Source: Alphaproteobacteria bacterium (GTDB taxonomy: Bacteria; Pseudomonadota; Alphaproteobacteria; Micropepsales; Micropepsaceae). Taken from it: a DNA stretch of 64,000 nt. Both the position numbers and the translations under genes were made by a program. Positions 3,886 to 32,446 of this stretch are shown piece by piece (the stretch's first letter is position 1; every line of letters begins with the position of its first letter). Location: positions 27,731-91,730 of the forward strand of contig WGNU01000003.1 of NCBI GenBank assembly GCA_016124385.1, read 5' to 3'. The notes beneath the pieces were generated by a model that was not told the origin of the DNA, made no database searches, and saw only the letters and a list, made by a program, of their open reading frames with translations.

Positions 3886-5556
3886 TCATTGATCGTTCAC
3901 GACAGCGATTTGCGGTCCGTCGGAGGGCCCCGCGACGGCTTGATCCTCGGGAATAAGACCCAACATGGGCGCAATCCGGGCGATGATTCGGCCGCAAGTG
4001 GGCGCGGCCGTCCACCCGCCCGTGGCATATCCGTGCGTTTCCGCCGTTGGCTGTGGCTCATCGAGCAGGACGAGCACGAGATAGCGTGGCTGAAGCGCCG
4101 GAAAGACGCCGACGAACGAGGAGAGCAGCGCCTTGCGCGCGTAGCGTCCGCCCTGCGCCTTTTCCGCCGTCCCTGTTTTACCGCCGACCGGATAGCCGAT
4201 GACGTCGGCTTTGCCGCCCGTTCCCTCGCTCACGACCAGCCGCAGCAGCGTGCGCATCGAGGCGCTGACGTCTTCCGAGATGACCCGCTTGGCGCGGACT
4301 GGCCCCTCGGGCGAGCGCTTGAGAATGGTTGGCGGGATCATGAGCCCGCCATTCACCATCGCCGCCATCGCTGTCGCGGTCTGCAAGGGGCTGACGGCAA
4401 GGCCGTGCCCGAACGAGATCGTCATCGTCTCGACCGGCCCCCATTGCGGCGGCAGCAGGGGCGGCGCCACCTCGGCGATCTCGATCGCGGGCGCGCTGAG
4501 GAGGCCGAAGCGGGAGAGATACGCGCGCTGGCGCTCAGGGCCGGTCGCCATCGCCATCCGCGCCGAGCCGATATTGGAGGAATATTGAAAGATCTCGGGC
4601 ACGCTCAGCCAGCGCGCCTCGGGGTGATAGTCGGAGATGGTGAAGCGCCCGATGCGGATCGGCTGGGAGGCATCGAACCCGTCGCGGATGGTGACGACGC
4701 CCGCGTCGAGCGCCATGGCGGTCGTGAACGTCTTGAAGGTGGAGCCCATCTCATAGACGCCGAGCGTTGCGCGGTTGAAGCGCGTTTCTGCCGGGCTGTC
4801 GGCGGGATGGTTGGGATCGAAATCGGGCACCGACGCCATCGCCAGCACTTCGCCCGAATGAACGTCGAGCACGATGCCGGTCGCCCCGACCGCGCGGAAC
4901 TCTTCGCTCGCGGCCGCAAGCTCGTCGGCCACGACATGCTGGACGCGCAGATCGAGCGAGAGCGTCAGCGGCGCCCCGCCGCGCGCGGGATCGCGCAAGC
5001 GCTGATCGAGCGCGCGCTCGACGCCTGCGAGCCCGCGATTGTCGATGTCGACGAAGCCGACCACGTGCGCCGCGGTCCGCCCGACCGGATAGACGCGCTT
5101 GGTCTCGCGCCGCACGCCCAGCCCCGCGATCCCAAGCGAGCGCACCTGCGCATATTGCGCGGGCGTGAGGTCGCGCTTGATCCACACGAACGCCAAGCCG
5201 GAGGAAAGCTTGCGCTCGAGGCTCGCCTCATCGAGTTCCGGCAGAATGGAAACGAGCGCGGCGGCGGCTTCCTTCGGGTCCCAGATATGCCGCGCATCGG
5301 CGTAGAGCGCATCGACCGGCACTTCCGTTGCGAGCAGCCGCCCGTCGCGGTCGACGATGTCGGCGCGCGTGAGCGTCGTCGCGGCGCTGCGCACCGGCGC
5401 GGTCGTTGCGACCTGCTGTGCCTCGGTCGCGATCACGAAAAGCCGCATGACGACGGTCGCGAACGCCGCCGCGAACAACCCGGCCGCCAGCATCGCACGC
5501 TGGCGCCGCCGGACGGCGACCGCGCGATGGGGGTAAGGGAGGCGGCGGGTGCGCAT
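3886..5556 (-). CDS. ftsI: peptidoglycan D,D-transpeptidase FtsI (PBP3)
   Basis: Class B PBP with SxxK (GSTFKTF), SSN (YSSNIG) and KTG (GGKTGTA) motifs. I place the start at the internal ATG at 5556 (MRTRRLPY...), which overlaps the ftsL stop; the longer track ORF to 5763 would overlap ftsL entirely. Confidence 0.9.
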   Translation of the reverse strand: MRTRRLPYPHRAVAVRRRQRAMLAAGLFAAAFATVVMRLFVIATEAQQVATTAPVRSAATTLTRADIVDRDGRLLATEVPVDALYADARHIWDPKEAAAALVSILPELDEASLERKLSSGLAFVWIKRDLTPAQYAQVRSLGIAGLGVRRETKRVYPVGRTAAHVVGFVDIDNRGLAGVERALDQRLRDPARGGAPLTLSLDLRVQHVVADELAAASEEFRAVGATGIVLDVHSGEVLAMASVPDFDPNHPADSPAETRFNRATLGVYEMGSTFKTFTTAMALDAGVVTIRDGFDASQPIRIGRFTISDYHPEARWLSVPEIFQYSSNIGSARMAMATGPERQRAYLSRFGLLSAPAIEIAEVAPPLLPPQWGPVETMTISFGHGLAVSPLQTATAMAAMVNGGLMIPPTILKRSPEGPVRAKRVISEDVSASMRTLLRLVVSEGTGGKADVIGYPVGGKTGTAEKAQGGRYARKALLSSFVGVFPALQPRYLVLVLLDEPQPTAETHGYATGGWTAAPTCGRIIARIAPMLGLIPEDQAVAGPSDGPQIAVVNDQ

Positions 5557-6898: not shown

Positions 6899-7374
6899 GC
6901 GCCCTCTCCCTTCGCGCTCGCCTCGCCGTTCGCGTCGAGCAGATGCCGTCGCTCCGCCGCGAGCCGGCGCATCTCCGCGATCTTGGCGGCAAAGGATTCC
7001 GGCTTCCAGATCTCGAAATGATCGCCGAGGCCGACGAACGTAGCCGCCTCGCTCAATTCCGCATAGGCCATCAGCGGCTGCGGAAGGACGACGCGCCCCT
7101 CGCTGTCGAACGAGAGTTCGTGCACCGAGCCGAGCACGGCGTACTCGAAGGCATCGCGGGTCGCCGAATATTTCTGGAGCGTCTCGATCTTGGCGGCGAA
7201 GGCGTCCATGCCGTCCTTCGTGTAGCCCTCCAGATAGCGCCCTTGAAAGGACTCGAAGCAGGCGAAATCCCGCGCGCCGTCGGCCGTCAGGATCGCGCGG
7301 AAATGCGCGGGCACGCTGACCCGGCCTTTCGCATCGATCCGGTTGGTCACCGACGTGAGGAAGGGTTTGGTCAT
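6895..7374 (-). CDS. mraZ: division/cell wall cluster transcriptional regulator MraZ
   Basis: From the internal ATG at 7374 the product [26 protein letters not shown]... has the duplicated SpoVT/AbrB-like MraZ pattern (DxKGRxxxP, then DSEGRVVLP). The upstream extension in the track (to 7521) is Pro/Gly-rich and looks non-coding. Confidence 0.9.
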
Positions 7375-23526: not shown

Positions 23527-24225
23527 TTGCGGCACGTTCTTATCCTTGCCCTTCTGATCTTCGCCTCGCCCGCGGCCGCGCGGGACTGGCACGGCGTGAC
23601 GCTCGACCGCGCGAAGATCATCCGCCCCGGGCTGCTCGAGGAAGCGCTGGGCGCGCTCACGTTCCACGCGGCCGTGATCCCGCAGCAGGACGCGATCGCC
23701 ATCATCGACTACGACTTGCCGTCGGATGAGCCGCGCCTGTTTCTCCTCGACCTCAAGACGGGCAAGGTGGAGGCGTTCCTCGTCGCGCATGGCCAGGGCT
23801 CCGATCCCGATCACGACGGGATGCTCGACAGCCTCTCGGACGTTCCGGGCTCGAACGCCTCGACGGCGGGCGCGTTCCTCACCGGCGAGACCTATTGCGG
23901 CGAGAACGGGCGGACGCTGCGGCTCTATGGGCTCGAGGAGCGCAACGCCAACGCCGCCACGCGCGCGATCGTCCTCCACTCGACCTATCTGAAAGGCCGC
24001 CTGCCCTATATGAGCCACGCCTTCATCGACGCGCACGGCCGGCCCGGCCGCTCCTGGGGCTGCTTCGTCCTGCCGCCCGAGGATCTGCGCCACGTGATCG
24101 AGCGGATCGGCGCCGGCCACCTCCTCTATGCGAACACGAAGCGCTTCCATAGCGGCAGCGCGGCGCCGGTGACGCCCCTGCCGGCCCTCGCGCCCCTTGC
24201 CCCCGGCACCTGCCCCTGGCCGTGA
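23527..24225 (+). CDS. L,D-transpeptidase catalytic-domain (YkuD_2-like) secreted protein
   Basis: Signal peptide. AIVLHSTYL...GRSWGCFVL resembles the His/Cys active-site motif of YkuD-fold enzymes. TTG start. Confidence 0.7.
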   Translation: MRHVLILALLIFASPAAARDWHGVTLDRAKIIRPGLLEEALGALTFHAAVIPQQDAIAIIDYDLPSDEPRLFLLDLKTGKVEAFLVAHGQGSDPDHDGMLDSLSDVPGSNASTAGAFLTGETYCGENGRTLRLYGLEERNANAATRAIVLHSTYLKGRLPYMSHAFIDAHGRPGRSWGCFVLPPEDLRHVIERIGAGHLLYANTKRFHSGSAAPVTPLPALAPLAPGTCPWP

Positions 24226-24283
24226 CTATTACGCCCGCCACTCCAATCGTTGCCAGGAGCGATTCAGCAGGACAGCATCGATC

Positions 24284-24928
24284 ATGGAAATCGCTCGATT
24301 CGTGCCCGACGAGATATCGCAAAAATTCGACGTTCGCGAGTGGCGAAACGGACTTGCTGTACTCGCTGGCGCGCATTCCAAGGAATTGAGCGACGTATAT
24401 TCAGTCTTAAAAAATTTCAGATTGTATAAATCATACATTCTCAAACCCGGAGGTAGCAAGTCACCCATCTCATCTTGGCTAGATAGTCAACTTTACAAAC
24501 TTGGTTGGAAAGAGAAAAAATTCGACACCAGCATCCTGGTAGACGGCATGGAATACAAGACGCCGACACACGCAGTCGATTGCTTTAAGAACCGTGTCGC
24601 TCTTGAAGTCGAATGGAACAACAAAGATCCATTCTTTGACAGAGATCTAAATAACTTTCGCCTTCTTTTCGAACTTCGAGCAATTGATGTTGGTATTATC
24701 ATAACGCGATGTGACGAGTTGCAGACAATTATCAAATCCCTCGGACGTGGCAGCAGCTATGGAGCTTCCACGACACATTTGTCCAAGCTCTTGCCACGAA
24801 TTGATGGTGGTGGCGGTGGCGGCTGCCCGATTGTTGTGTTCGGCATTCGTTCTTCGTGTTATGTGGATGAAAATCACCCAGAAACGTTTGGGACAGCTGG
24901 CCTGGAAGGAAGCACTGATGACGAGTAA
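24284..24928 (+). CDS. type II restriction endonuclease, BglII/BstYI/BamHI fold
   Basis: 214 aa from ATG 24284. The core VDCFKNRVALEVEWNNKDPFFDRDLNNF...IDVGIIITR aligns by eye with BglII IDFGKRDTLVEVQFSNYPFLLNN...VAIIIT. The D-x8-E-x-E catalytic spacing matches BglII D84/E93/Q95. Confidence 0.75.
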   Translation: MEIARFVPDEISQKFDVREWRNGLAVLAGAHSKELSDVYSVLKNFRLYKSYILKPGGSKSPISSWLDSQLYKLGWKEKKFDTSILVDGMEYKTPTHAVDCFKNRVALEVEWNNKDPFFDRDLNNFRLLFELRAIDVGIIITRCDELQTIIKSLGRGSSYGASTTHLSKLLPRIDGGGGGGCPIVVFGIRSSCYVDENHPETFGTAGLEGSTDDE

Positions 24929-25547
24929 TGACATGTTCGACAGTGTCAGAGGGACCAGATACCAGACAGTTCTCGCCGACCCGCCATGGCAGTTTCAAAA
25001 CCGTACTGGCAAGATGGCGCCAGAACATCGCAGGCTAAATCGCTATGGCACTATGGCTCTGGATCAAATTGCAGCGCTGCCGGTCTCAGACTTAGCTGCA
25101 CCGCGCTCACATCTTTATCTCTGGGTCCCGAACGCCCTCTTGCCAGAGGGAATTATAGTAATGAAATCTTGGGGTTTTACTTACAAAAGCAATATTGTGT
25201 GGCACAAAATTAGAAAAGATGGCGGATCTGACGGAAGGGGAGTTGGATTTTATTTTAGAAACGTCACAGAGCTTTGTCTTTTTGGGATTCGCGGTTCGAA
25301 TAACAGGACATTGAGCCCTGCACGTCGACAAGTGAACATGCTAGAGACTCGCAAGCGTGAGCACAGCCGTAAGCCAGACGAACTATATGAAATTATAGAA
25401 GCCTGTAGCCCCGGACCCTACCTCGAGCTATTCGCGCGCGGCACTAGGACCGGTTGGCATTCATGGGGTGAGCAGGCGAACGACACCTATGCACCGACCT
25501 GGAAGACCTACGCCAATCACTCGAGATCGCTCCAAGCTGCTGAGTAG
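24918..25547 (+). CDS. MT-A70 family N6-adenine DNA methyltransferase
   Basis: TVLADPPWQF (DPPW motif IV), YLWVPN, GFTYKSNIVWHK, EHSRKPDELYEIIE. ATG 24918 overlaps the endonuclease 3' end by 11 nt; an ATG at 24933 is an alternative start. Confidence 0.85.
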   Translation: MTSNDMFDSVRGTRYQTVLADPPWQFQNRTGKMAPEHRRLNRYGTMALDQIAALPVSDLAAPRSHLYLWVPNALLPEGIIVMKSWGFTYKSNIVWHKIRKDGGSDGRGVGFYFRNVTELCLFGIRGSNNRTLSPARRQVNMLETRKREHSRKPDELYEIIEACSPGPYLELFARGTRTGWHSWGEQANDTYAPTWKTYANHSRSLQAAE

Positions 25548-29464: not shown

Positions 29465-30241
29465 GTGGCCTTGGCGAGCGACAATCCGCGCGATGAACAG
29501 CGCGACGTGAAGGAGCGGCTGTTGGCGCGCCCGGCGCCGCCCGCGCCCAAGATCGCCTGCTTTCACTGCCCGGCCCGCACGAGCGATCTGTGCCGGGGCG
29601 TGGCCGACAAGGACCTGGAGGAATTATTCGCCTCCTCCAGCCGCATCCGCCTGAAGGCGGAAGAAACGCTGATCCTCGATGGCGACGAGGCCTCCACGGT
29701 CTACAATGTCATTTCGGGCGCCATGCGCCTGACGCGGCTCTCGGGCGACGGGCGCCGGCAGATCCTGGGTTTCCTCTTCACCGGCAACTACATCGGCCTG
29801 ACGCCCGACACGCTCTACCACTTCAACGCCGAGGCCGTGAGCGATGTGGAGCTGTGCGCCTTCGACCGCAGGCGCCTGGAGACGCTCTTCAAGCTCCACC
29901 CCGCGATGGAGGCGACCTTCCGCGCGATGGCGGCCAAGGTGATCGATCAGACCTATGATCTCCTCTTCACGCTCGGCCAGCGCACGGCGGTTGAGCGCGT
30001 CGCGAGCTTCCTCCTCTATCTGCGCGAGGCCGAGCAATGCCCGGGCAAGCCCGGCGCGCCGCTGCATCTGCCGATGACGCGCACGGACATCGCCGATTTC
30101 CTCGGCCTCACCATCGAAACCGTCAGCCGCTCGTTCACGAAGCTGCGCACGGACAAGATCATCCACCTCGTCGATGCGCACCGGGTGGAGGTGCTCAGGC
30201 CCGACCTCCTCTTGGCTGCCGCCGGCGAGGAAGCGCCGTGA
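29465..30241 (+). CDS. fnrL: Crp/Fnr family transcriptional regulator with FNR-type N-terminal Cys cluster
   Basis: CFHCPARTSDLC (C-x2-C-x5-C) plus a later Cys (VELCAF). cNMP-like beta-roll. C-terminal HTH RTDIADFLGLTIETVSRSFTKL. Confidence 0.88.
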   Translation: MALASDNPRDEQRDVKERLLARPAPPAPKIACFHCPARTSDLCRGVADKDLEELFASSSRIRLKAEETLILDGDEASTVYNVISGAMRLTRLSGDGRRQILGFLFTGNYIGLTPDTLYHFNAEAVSDVELCAFDRRRLETLFKLHPAMEATFRAMAAKVIDQTYDLLFTLGQRTAVERVASFLLYLREAEQCPGKPGAPLHLPMTRTDIADFLGLTIETVSRSFTKLRTDKIIHLVDAHRVEVLRPDLLLAAAGEEAP

Positions 30242-30417
30242 GCCGCGCCCGCCCCCGCCCCGAGCGCGCGCTGGGCGATTCGCTCGACGGCGCGCCGATG
30301 TCCGCCTCCGCGCTCGTCTGGCTGACGGTCGCGTTCCTGGCGAGCCTTCTCGCCATCGCGGGCATTCCCGCGATCGTTCCCCCGCCGCACGCGGCCGCGA
30401 TCACCGCCGAGCCCTGA
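30238..30417 (+). CDS. possible small membrane protein (59 aa, or 39 aa from the internal ATG at 30298)
   Basis: GTG overlaps the fnr stop (GTGA). One hydrophobic helix (LVWLTVAFLASLLAIAGIPAIV). No family recognised. Confidence 0.25.
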   Translation: MSRARPRPERALGDSLDGAPMSASALVWLTVAFLASLLAIAGIPAIVPPPHAAAITAEP

Positions 30418-30433
30418 GCCGCGGAACGCTGAA

Positions 30434-31204
30434 GTGACGACGCTCCGCAGCTGGCTGACCGCGCTCTATCAGGGCGATACGGCCCTCGCGCGCAGCTACA
30501 ATTATTTCCTGCTGATCTTCGATATCGCGATGGTGATCTACGTCATCGCCTCCTCGTTCTTCTATGGCGCGCTCGCGGTCGAGATCATCGACGCCTTGCT
30601 CGGCATCGTCATCGTGTTCGATTTCGCGGCCCGCCTCATCATTGCTGAGCGCCCCTGGCGCACGCTCTTCAGTGTCGTGGGCATCGCCGATCTGGTGGTG
30701 ATCGCCTCGCTCCTCGCGCCCATCGCGGGCGAGGGCTTCGCGTTCCTGCGCGTCGTGCGCACGCTGCGCCTGCTGCGCTCGTATCATCTCTTGAAGCAGC
30801 TACGGGGCGATTTCGCGTACTTCCGCCGCAACGAGGCGACGCTCTTTGCCGCCGTCAATCTGGCGATCTTCATTTTCGTGACGACCGCGCTCGTCTTCGA
30901 GACGCAGCACGCGACCAACCCGCAGATCCAGAACTACGCCGACGCGCTCTATTTCACCGTGACGACGCTGACGACGACCGGCTTCGGCGACATCACGCTC
31001 CCCGGCCCGACGGGGCGCCTCCTCTCCGTCGCGATCATGATCGTGGGCGTCTCGCTCTTCGTGCGGCTGATCCAGGTGCTCTTCCGCCCACCCAAGGTAA
31101 CCTTCCCCTGCCCCGATTGCGGCTTGACGCTGCACGACCTCGACGCCGTCCACTGCAAGCATTGCGGCCGCGTGCTGAAAATCCCGAACGAGGGGGTAGT
31201 TTAG
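30434..31204 (+). CDS. voltage-sensor-type potassium channel with C-terminal zinc ribbon
   Basis: S4-like LRVVRTLRLLRSYHLLKQLR, a TTTGFGD selectivity filter, six predicted TM helices, and a tail CPDCG-x11-CKHCG. Confidence 0.85.
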   Translation: MTTLRSWLTALYQGDTALARSYNYFLLIFDIAMVIYVIASSFFYGALAVEIIDALLGIVIVFDFAARLIIAERPWRTLFSVVGIADLVVIASLLAPIAGEGFAFLRVVRTLRLLRSYHLLKQLRGDFAYFRRNEATLFAAVNLAIFIFVTTALVFETQHATNPQIQNYADALYFTVTTLTTTGFGDITLPGPTGRLLSVAIMIVGVSLFVRLIQVLFRPPKVTFPCPDCGLTLHDLDAVHCKHCGRVLKIPNEGVV

Positions 31205-31257
31205 GGGATTGCGGAGGCTAGTTGGGCTGCGCCACGCGTAGCCCGTAAGGGCGAAGC

Positions 31258-32386
31258 GTGGTGGGCCCGGCAGGAACAAACTGGGCACTGGCTCATCTGC
31301 ATTCGCTGGCACCCACACCGCCGGCCAGCGCGGGACAGAGCCTAGCCTAAGCGTTTCGCCAACGTAGAATGGTCGTTCGCTTGGGCCGAATTCTGCTGCA
31401 TTCATGTTCTTTCCGGATAGCGACGCATGAACGAGATCGAACAAGAGTGCATCATCTTGAACTCGGCGTGGAAAATGATCGACGGCATGGTCAACTGGGC
31501 CATGTTCGTGAAACACGGTCACGTCGAACCGACCGATATGATGTTCCAAACTAGCCATTGCAGCGAACTGTTCATCATCCGGCTCGGTGACTTCTTGTCT
31601 CAACTCCGCGCATTCAATGGGCGGCCGGTTCCACTCGGCCTGCAAGCGGCTCCATCGAATGCCCGCCCGTCCGATCTGACCTTTCTCTATTATCTGCGAC
31701 AGGTGTGCGCGAAGCCTCACCTCGCGCCGGAAGCATCGAACCTGAGTACTCACACCGAGGCATTCGCTACCTGGCTCGAAGGAGACTTCGTCACCCAAGG
31801 CGTCAACTTGTCCGCGATCAATGTCGTCGCCGACCTACGTGTCACGCGCTATCGATACCTCAAGATTTGTGGTGACATCGCAAAACACAATCTGGCACGG
31901 CTTGAAACGAACGTCCGTTACATACAAAACCTGCTCCAAGCCAGCGGCCATCCCGTCGGCGAGCAAGAAGCATACCTGACGGTTGCAGATTTCTACGAAT
32001 GGTTCCAAAGGAAAATCTTCATCTATCACTCAAGCCAAATTGCTGAATTCCTGAACAACATTCGATGGGCGATCTTCGAGTTCCTGCAGCCTGAGTTTGA
32101 CCGGTCGTACCATCAAAAAGAAGGCTACTCACTGAGTACGCCTTTGTATGGCTATCACTATCCGGATGGCTGCAACGAGCCGCTGGCATGCGCGATGTAT
32201 TGGGATCTGATGAACCGGGTGCGCGGACGGCCGTGGCTGCACCGTTTCATTGTGTCGGACTCGTTTAAGGCGCTTTACTAGTTACAAAGCGGACTCCAGG
32301 ACGATGTCCAAGTCGCGGAGGCCGCCTGTGTTTGCCGCGTCACTGAGATTTGCGATGTACGTTCCAGTGTGGTGGGCCCGGCAGGA
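31258..32386. mobile_element. integrase-less tRNA-associated genomic islet bounded by 18-bp direct repeats
   Basis: GTGGTGGGCCCGGCAGGA occurs at 31258-31275 and again at 32369-32386, the latter covering the tRNA 3' end (32370-32386) plus one flanking base. The interior is AT-richer than the flanks and holds one ORF. Confidence 0.7.
31427..32281 (+). CDS. orphan hypothetical protein (284 aa), islet cargo
   Basis: Long uninterrupted ORF with normal amino-acid composition and atypical (lower GC) codon usage. I recognise no motif. Confidence 0.6.
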   Translation: MNEIEQECIILNSAWKMIDGMVNWAMFVKHGHVEPTDMMFQTSHCSELFIIRLGDFLSQLRAFNGRPVPLGLQAAPSNARPSDLTFLYYLRQVCAKPHLAPEASNLSTHTEAFATWLEGDFVTQGVNLSAINVVADLRVTRYRYLKICGDIAKHNLARLETNVRYIQNLLQASGHPVGEQEAYLTVADFYEWFQRKIFIYHSSQIAEFLNNIRWAIFEFLQPEFDRSYHQKEGYSLSTPLYGYHYPDGCNEPLACAMYWDLMNRVRGRPWLHRFIVSDSFKALY

Positions 32387-32446
32387 CTCGAACCTGCGAC
32401 CAGACCGTTATGAGCGGCCCGCTCTAACCAGCTGAGCTACAGGCCC
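32370..32446 (-). tRNA. tRNA with CAU anticodon (elongator tRNA-Met, or tRNA-Ile2 if lysidine-modified)
   Basis: 77 nt: GGGCCTG TA GCTC AGCTGGTTA GAGC G GGCCG CTCATAA CGGTC TGGTC GCAGG TTCGAGT CCTGC CGGGCCC A CCA. It forms a full cloverleaf with encoded CCA. There is no C1:A72 mismatch, so it is not an initiator. Confidence 0.95.

Follow-up and report, generated by a model that had tools for sequence, protein, structure and literature searches.

How does a DNA segment with a single gene and no integrase come to lie against the 3' end of a tRNA gene, framed by two copies of that end? The question is raised by a 64,000-nucleotide stretch of contig WGNU01000003.1 from an alphaproteobacterium of the family Micropepsaceae, hereafter called the window, in which a 1.1-kb islet (31276-32368) containing one open reading frame (ORF284) adjoins a tRNA gene with anticodon CAT. 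A preliminary description of this locus had offered two answers: decay of a larger island to one retained cargo gene, or a minimal element mobilized in trans. The first lost ground and the second gained it when a unit with the same ends was found at a tRNA-Tyr gene in another organism. We consider the islet to be probably a non-autonomous integrative mini-element that resembles the cis-mobilizable elements (CIMEs) and is very small.

The insertion at the tRNA(CAU) gene

Tyrosine integrases acting at tRNA genes (tDNAs) leave a regenerated tDNA and a displaced 3' fragment in direct orientation (PMC4383910). In the window the exact 18-mer GTGGTGGGCCCGGCAGGA occurs at two sites only, 31258-31275 and 32369-32386, both on the plus strand, and no further site was detected when up to two mismatches were allowed. 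Shuffled versions of the window contained on average 0.01 matches to the 18-mer and none of 100 shuffles reached two. If one mismatch is tolerated the repeat extends to 21 nt (AGCGTGGTGGGCCCGGCAGGA and AGTGTGGTGGGCCCGGCAGGA), at 31255-31275 and 32366-32386. The sole tRNA gene that ARAGORN reported in the window is a tRNA-Met(CAT) at 32370-32446 on the minus strand, which Rfam recognized as a full-length tRNA with 66.9 bits. The right repeat copy consists of 17 nt of the 3' end of this gene and one flanking base, and comprises the CCA, the discriminator, the 3' acceptor strand, the 3' T-stem strand and one nucleotide of the T-loop. Both the repeat and its overlap with the tRNA end were thus as the preliminary description had given them. 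The 1093 bp between the copies have an intact tDNA on one side and, similarly oriented, a displaced piece of its end on the other, which is how Islander defines the borders of a tRNA island. Both attachment sites, attL and attR, are retained, as in CIMEs, and their copies are identical over 18 bp.

ARAGORN gives the label Met to every tRNA with a CAT anticodon. Since all such genes are called Met, the label does not separate an elongator tRNA-Met from a tRNA-Ile2 in this case. The G1-C72 pair of the gene rules out an initiator tRNA, and the sequence resembles Ile-type tRNAs. It could be a lysidine-modified tRNA-Ile2 rather than an elongator tRNA-Met.

For comparison of the tRNA(CAU) locus, relatives of the channel protein encoded to the left of the islet were searched and their contigs were fetched. 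One of these, L113, has 94% nucleotide identity to window positions 29547-31205. At positions 2498-2536 it shows the flank GGGCGAAaCG followed directly by the tRNA, without ORF284; the junction reads GGGCGAAaCG and then TGGTGGGCCCGGCAGGACTCGAACC (also given as GGGCGAAaCG and then TGGTGGGCCCGGCAGGACTCGAACCTGCG), and the corresponding flank in the window is GGGCGAAGCG. Because L113 joins the same flank straight to the tRNA, the left repeat copy in the window is the displaced native tRNA 3' end with its native downstream flank. In the more distant contigs L114-L121 (77% nucleotide identity) the channel stop codon is followed by 52 bp and the tRNA, with a single repeat copy and no islet. The GC content of the islet is 0.545 versus 0.663 for the window, and the GC content at third codon positions (GC3) is 0.67 in ORF284 versus 0.90 in both flanking genes. 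Absence from relatives with an empty attB site and atypical composition are features by which Islander recognizes islands, and they were found here. The 1.1-kb interior is a real insertion of foreign DNA.

These comparisons bear on the att-type geometry that the preliminary description had proposed, and they agree with it. It had suggested a look for empty sites in relatives, and had pointed out that a coincidental repeat would leave both copies in relatives lacking the ORF and that conserved core sequence would be of typical composition. L113 and L114-L121 carry one copy of the repeat and no ORF, and both GC and GC3 of the interior are atypical.

A different segment was observed in L113 near the same place. 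At positions 1661-2497 an 838-bp segment of low GC content (0.559 versus 0.662 in the flank) replaces 44 bp that match window positions 31205-31248. It carries a 243-amino acid ORF on the minus strand without a Pfam or PADLOC match, and no flanking repeat was seen. Since L113 has this different low-GC, single-ORF segment there, the spot downstream of tRNA(CAU) is a hot spot for alternative single-gene islets.

A second copy at tRNA-Tyr

The nearest ORF284 homologue (P0001, 93% amino acid identity) is located on the metagenomic contigs L054-L058 and L066. There the unit adjoins a tRNA-Tyr(GTA) gene, between a MarR gene and rlmB, with a geometry as in the window and a GC content of 0.55 versus 0.65. 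No integrase was found within 8 kb of this copy. The tRNA-Tyr copy and window positions 31255-32399 are 91.6% identical at the nucleotide level, and the identity ends at the islet ends except for T-arm bases common to both tRNAs. The left arms of the window and tRNA-Tyr copies (151 versus 158 nt) are about 92% identical with one 7-bp indel; the right arms (87 versus 89 nt) are about 83% identical. In all, the non-coding arms of the two copies differ by the 7-bp indel and two smaller ones. Related hosts again have an empty site: in L122 and L123, of which rlmB is 89-90% identical at the protein level to that of the tRNA-Tyr host, MarR and rlmB are 453 bp apart and the junction reads GCGCGCGAAGAC followed by TGGTGGGAGAGGTAGGA.

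Joining the right end of the islet to its left end gives a reconstructed attP that is colinear in both copies. It reads GATGTAC(G/A)TTCCAG(TG/CGA)-TGGTGGGCC-(CGGCAGGAA/AACCGGGGG)-CAAACTGGGCACT, or in short form GATGTACRTTCCAG(TG/CGA)-TGGTGGGCC-9 variable nt-CAAACTGGGCACT. We presume that the right non-coding arm was the P arm of this former attP, and that the left arm combines its P' arm with the upstream region of the ORF. For a circular form of the islet the predicted junction is GATGTACGTTCCAGTG-TGGTGGGCCCGGCAGGA-ACAAACTGGGCACT. The string CAAACTGGGCACTNNNTCATCTGCATTCGCTGG, paired with right-arm sequence, would locate further insertion sites of the islet.

Homologous recombination between tRNA-Met and tRNA-Tyr was considered as the origin of the second site and was rejected. 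It is excluded because the tRNA-Tyr on the element side has retained its acceptor and T stem, which do not differ from those of the empty sites.

The two copies also allow us to weigh decay in situ, in which an integrase-bearing tRNA island would have lost all but one cargo gene between intact att sites and would never have moved in its present form. Decayed tRNA islands are common, and an example with a truncated integrase at a tRNA-Glu gene was among our loci (see below). Modules combining an integrase with an ORF284 relative exist, since plasmid-borne family members lie 0.1-2 kb from tyrosine recombinase genes, and CIMEs by definition arise through such decay (PMC5704250). However, both ends are shared between the window islet and the tRNA-Tyr copy, and their colinear arms differ by nothing more than the three indels. 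Larger islands that decayed independently would not be expected to end at one and the same pair of boundaries with such arms, and the unit has therefore probably moved at least once when it was already without an integrase. The islet also contains no pseudogene debris, its 1093 bp being filled for 855 bp by the intact ORF. We therefore regard decay in place as an unlikely full account of the islet.

Two further observations were made around tRNA-Tyr. In L124-L126 the spacer between MarR and tRNA-Tyr is about 290 bp longer, which represents a further case of a small variable insert in the 3' flank of a tRNA, and a 79-amino acid GIY-YIG ORF is present downstream of the tRNA (L124, 3444-3683). 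In addition, TGGTTGGCGCGGCAGGA (L122, 3926-3942; also in L123-L126), located about 50 bp to the 5' side of tRNA-Tyr, matches the window repeat at 15 of 17 positions. This match is probably due to chance or to promoter sequence.

Mobility genes and mechanism

ORF284 is the only plausible ORF between the repeats and leaves 238 bp non-coding; a promoter and terminator scan of the islet gave nothing useful. Searches of ORF284 with Pfam, NCBIfam, PADLOC and PHROGs returned no match and no transposase domain. ORF listing and domain and profile searches thus supported the earlier statement that one ORF and no integrase are present between the repeats. Ten window ORFs of integrase size and with host-like codon usage proved to be housekeeping genes, none of them a recombinase, when scanned against Pfam. 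When the integrase remnant from the tRNA-Glu islet, a weak fragment, served as jackhmmer seed against the window and all loci, only the seed itself was recovered. With its single ORF of an uncharacterized family the islet lacks integration and conjugation genes, which is characteristic of CIMEs. No parent integrative and conjugative element (ICE) or integrative and mobilizable element (IME) was found, and the plasmid homologues near tyrosine recombinases are distant (33-60% identity).

The features of insertion sequences, miniature inverted-repeat transposable elements and transposons, namely terminal inverted repeats, a target-site duplication of fixed length and a transposase, were not observed. 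A transposon reading was rejected: there are no terminal inverted repeats, and the direct repeats measure 18 bp in the window versus 13 bp at tRNA-Tyr. The element ends also shift relative to the repeats. The same facts bear on the idea of an autonomous element, according to which ORF284 itself would be a novel recombinase or nuclease that inserts its own gene beside tRNA 3' ends and at other sites. Such an activity would fit a single-ORF unit present at two different tRNAs, a family member flanked by an 18-bp direct repeat without a tRNA (L073), and a family that is patchy across phyla, highly conserved and of no known fold. Yet about 100 other loci show no tRNA linkage, flanking repeats or conserved non-coding ends, and the ends are not fixed relative to the unequal repeats. 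The gene moreover behaves as cargo, being coupled to a PIN-TPR-GreABC gene in Bradyrhizobium and placed among abortive-infection (Abi) and toxin-antitoxin (TA) genes on plasmids, with a copy number of apparently about one per genome. An autonomous element is very improbable for these reasons. We give next to no credence to a non-mobile origin, with the left copy a chance repeat or a relic of a duplicated tRNA and the ORF part of the ancestral core. In favor of it, tRNA 3' ends are short and GC-rich and an unrelated 15/17 match occurs near tRNA-Tyr in L122-L126; against it, chance predicts 0.01 matches, relatives have an empty site with a single copy, the interior is of foreign composition and the same unit is present at another locus in another organism.

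For the non-autonomous mini-element that we favor, the following course of events is proposed. A 1.09-kb foreign segment would have entered the 3' end of tRNA(CAU) by conservative site-specific recombination of the tyrosine-integrase type, with the crossover inside the 18-bp identity that covers the T-stem, acceptor and CCA parts of the tDNA. Recombination would have left a restored tRNA gene at the right end of the islet and shifted the native 3' part with its flank to the left end. The recombinase would not be encoded by the element; an integrase would have come from another source, acting in trans or carried by an integrase-bearing element that accreted with the islet and was later excised (cis-mobilization). 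Since a unit with identical ends adjoins tRNA-Tyr in another organism, the element would already have had its present size when it moved. The single gene would be accessory cargo from an uncharacterized family, most likely encoding a stand-alone anti-phage, abortive-infection or conflict protein.

Several observations weigh against this proposal. The repeat at the tRNA-Tyr site measures only 13 bp (CAGCGATGGTGGG), of which 7 bp are in the tRNA and 6 bp outside, in flanking sequence where no relationship would be expected. The left fragment at this site, TGGTGGGCCAACCGGGGG, is not a copy of tRNA-Tyr and looks like the 3' end of another tRNA; none of the fetched loci contained a tRNA with this 3' end. 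The tRNA-Tyr event may represent the use of a secondary site. On the simplest reading, the attP of this copy would have matched another tRNA, and tRNA-Tyr would have been used through the shared CCCACCA end. An integrase recognizing the att site was not identified in the 64 kb of the source genome that were examined, and searches of viral contigs with the islet DNA and its junction gave no match to a circular junction or excised form. Most of the approximately 100 family loci are not beside tRNAs and have no flanking repeats; the att-bounded state is thus confined to the present sub-lineage. The defense role is proposed from gene neighborhood, and PADLOC gave no match.

The ORF284 family

The family to which ORF284 belongs gave 495 matches at E<=1e-3 in 90% clusters and comprises 528 clusters at 50% identity. 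Most members are exactly 284 amino acids long, and the 120 best matches are 60-93% identical. The hosts include Alpha-, Beta- and Gammaproteobacteria, Acidobacteria and Nitrospinota, and all members are annotated as hypothetical. Pfam, NCBIfam, PADLOC and PHROGs returned nothing for the window protein and 15 diverse homologues, nor did the defense hidden Markov models of PADLOC-DB 2.0 match the window protein or 5 diverse homologues. A confident AlphaFold model based on an alignment of 96 sequences had a predicted local distance difference test score (pLDDT) of 95.8 and a predicted template modeling score (pTM) of 0.93, and it is mostly helical with a beta hairpin. Foldseek searches of PDB and BFVD with this model and with an earlier poor one (pLDDT 74) gave no hit better than E about 0.1-1, TM scores being below 0.3, and a sequence-profile search of PDB with ORF284 gave nothing. 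Residues D55 and W116 are invariant, and E5, E7, N23, R141, K153, H154, N210 and Y219 are at least 90% conserved. The ratio of nonsynonymous to synonymous substitution rates (dN/dS) between the two element copies is 0.225, showing that ORF284 is maintained by purifying selection.

Homology outside the coding sequence was found only with the L054 group, and elsewhere it stops at the start and stop codons. A tRNA gene lies within a few kb only in the window, the L054 group, L011, L002 and L032. A general tRNA linkage of the family was accordingly rejected, a tRNA being near in just these five loci or groups among about 100. Over the same loci no general flanking repeat was found around family members and no neighbor gene was conserved, save for a divergently transcribed partner of about 390 amino acids in five of them. 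The partner is encoded directly upstream of the homologue (L075 2040-3209 and L127 3751-4923, also in L008, L040 and L076). It has no Pfam or PADLOC match, shows 62% identity between two loci and is absent from the window. It may be the partner in a two-gene variant.

Recurrent defense and TA genes and mobile elements were found around the homologues, as is usual for defense islands and accessory cargo. Eight plasmids carry a homologue. On plasmid pSchITTGS70a of Sinorhizobium chiapasense the genes on either side of it are that of a 389-amino acid partner and an AbiV gene, and AbiH, VapBC and tyrosine recombinase genes are close by. On pP88_c of Phaeobacter inhibens it directly follows AbiEi-AbiEii, and on Azotobacter and Agrobacterium plasmids it is near DUF4917, AbiEii and site-specific integrases. 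In a Xanthobacteraceae lineage the homologue follows a Phd/YefM-like gene. In Bradyrhizobium diazoefficiens (L062, 2055-6855) it overlaps by 14 bp with the 3' end of a gene for a 1319-amino acid PIN-TPR-GreABC protein (PF20698), which suggests translational coupling within a conflict system. A fragment of an IS200-like Y1 transposase was observed after this homologue.

No ORF284 homologue was found in isolated phage genomes. In the IMG/VR contig L112 (6001-6855; the same sequence occurs in L010 and L081) a homologue is present on the opposite strand between the genes for a tail-tube (PF18906) and a tape-measure protein (PF09718), with genes for a major capsid protein (PF03864) and an S49 protease nearby. 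This is a typical position for a moron in a prophage. Judged from such neighborhoods, the chance that ORF284 is a stand-alone abortive-infection or defense-type protein is a little below even.

Features of the locus and comparable islets

The features of the islet and its borders are collected in Table 1. Its neighbors are an ion-channel gene (30434-31204; Ion_trans_2 and zinc ribbon) on the left and a SIMPL/DUF541 gene on the right.

Table 1. Islet features and borders, with positions in the window
Feature	Position	Strand	Basis or remark
Native intergenic DNA, from channel stop codon to displaced tRNA fragment	31205..31254		Final ~10 nt (GGGCGAAGCG): native downstream flank of the tRNA
attL-type junction: displaced native tRNA 3' fragment (17 nt) with flank, repeat copy 1	31255..31275	+	Empty-site comparison
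Left non-coding arm, 151 nt, starts ACAAACTGGGCACT	31276..31426	+	~92% identical and colinear with tRNA-Tyr copy
Cargo ORF (ORF284), 284 amino acids, sole plausible ORF	31427..32281	+	Uncharacterized conserved family
Right non-coding arm, 87 nt, ends GATGTACGTTCCAGT	32282..32368	+	~83% identical and colinear with tRNA-Tyr copy
attR-type junction: repeat copy 2, overlaps 3' end of intact tRNA	32366..32386	+	Repeat search
Intact tRNA, anticodon CAT, integration target	32370..32446	-	ARAGORN, Rfam

Comparable arrangements were found at two other tRNA genes. In a Hyphomicrobiaceae metagenome-assembled genome (L032, 1093-7062) two tandem islets of low GC content are bounded by repeats of the tRNA-Ser(gct) 3' end, one of 24 nt at 4371 and one of 18 nt at 7045. 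One islet encodes a DNA methylase and a trypsin-like protease, and the other a 217-amino acid ORF and a frameshifted ORF284 homologue. The two have a homologous tRNA-proximal segment in common, and no integrase-like ORF was seen, with three ORFs scanned against Pfam. In L011 (10900-12424) an 18-bp repeat of the 3' end of tRNA-Glu(ctc) bounds a 1.45-kb islet, in which the ORF nearest the tRNA encodes a truncated tyrosine integrase (PF00589, 26.5 bits). The islet is a decayed island at an intermediate stage.

A different situation was observed in L073 (2856-3912), where an ORF284 homologue with 70% identity is flanked by the 18-bp repeat AATTGCACTCTGACCCCA (at 2988 and 3895) without a tRNA. The repeat belongs to inverted and tandem motifs of the GGGGTCAGAGT type upstream, which may be similar to repetitive extragenic palindromes or to the inverted repeats of Tn3.

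The window itself contains a second patch of low GC content (24197-25547; GC 0.48-0.57 versus 0.66), with no adjoining tRNA. A gene for a BglII-like restriction endonuclease (PF09195, 24197-24928) overlaps here with one for an MT-A70 adenine methyltransferase (PF05063, 24711-25547). The patch is a small acquired type II restriction-modification islet.

Relation to known systems

CIMEs are integrase-less elements that depend for their movement on related elements with an integrase, as a rule after the two have accreted in tandem (PMC6323972, PMC5704250). Like the CIMEs related to ICESt1 and ICESt3 of Streptococcus thermophilus, the islet lies at a target gene 3' end, is framed by attL and attR direct repeats and carries no integration or transfer genes, and the expected mover would be the integrase of a related element, acting in trans or after accretion. 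The tandem integrase-less islets of a similar kind at tRNA-Ser in L032 add to this likeness. Unlike described CIMEs the islet is much smaller, with one gene on 1.09 kb, and it occurs in genomes of the alphaproteobacterial type, at two tRNA genes (Met/CAU and Tyr), with no known parent ICE or IME and a mobility that we infer from sequence.

With the tRNA islands and prophages detected by Islander the islet shares the intact tDNA and displaced 3' fragment, the atypical composition and the empty sites in relatives, and its 17-nt fragment fits the subsite class at the T-stem/acceptor junction (PMC4383910). It differs from them by its lack of an integrase gene and its size below 2 kb (1093 bp). Since Islander requires an integrase and a length of 2-200 kb (PMC4383910), both filters reject it.

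The cargo gene invites comparison with phage morons and stand-alone Abi genes, since a family member stands by itself on the opposite strand within a prophage tail module, and with defense cargo, in view of the homologues beside AbiV, AbiH, AbiEi/Eii and VapBC on plasmids and their patchy, horizontally transferred distribution. ORF284 is unlike known Abi and defense proteins, however, in that no sequence or structure match was found (PADLOC, Pfam, PDB, BFVD) and no phenotype is known.

A broader view, which we find rather doubtful, is that such islets represent cassette-like traffic in which trans-acting integrases would carry minimal att-bounded single-gene units, themselves lacking a recombinase, from one tRNA 3' end to another (Met, Tyr, Ser and others). 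It is conceivable, with no higher likelihood, that this traffic would deliver defense genes in the way that integron cassettes deliver resistance genes. In that scheme ORF284 would be a stand-alone defense protein with a new fold, an assignment that is likewise tentative.

The islet described here is unusually small, its insertion at each of two tRNAs can be demonstrated, and its gene is uncharacterized, with a predicted fold that is unmatched. Island finders that demand an integrase and a minimum size discard islets of this kind. As a 1.1-kb one-gene unit with the same ends at two tRNA genes, it would be a clean natural example of the smallest type of integrase-dependent hitchhiker, and its two junctions and reconstructable attP of about 50 nt provide a concrete substrate for finding the mobilizing integrase. 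The ORF284 family that it carries is a good candidate for a new single-gene defense or conflict function.

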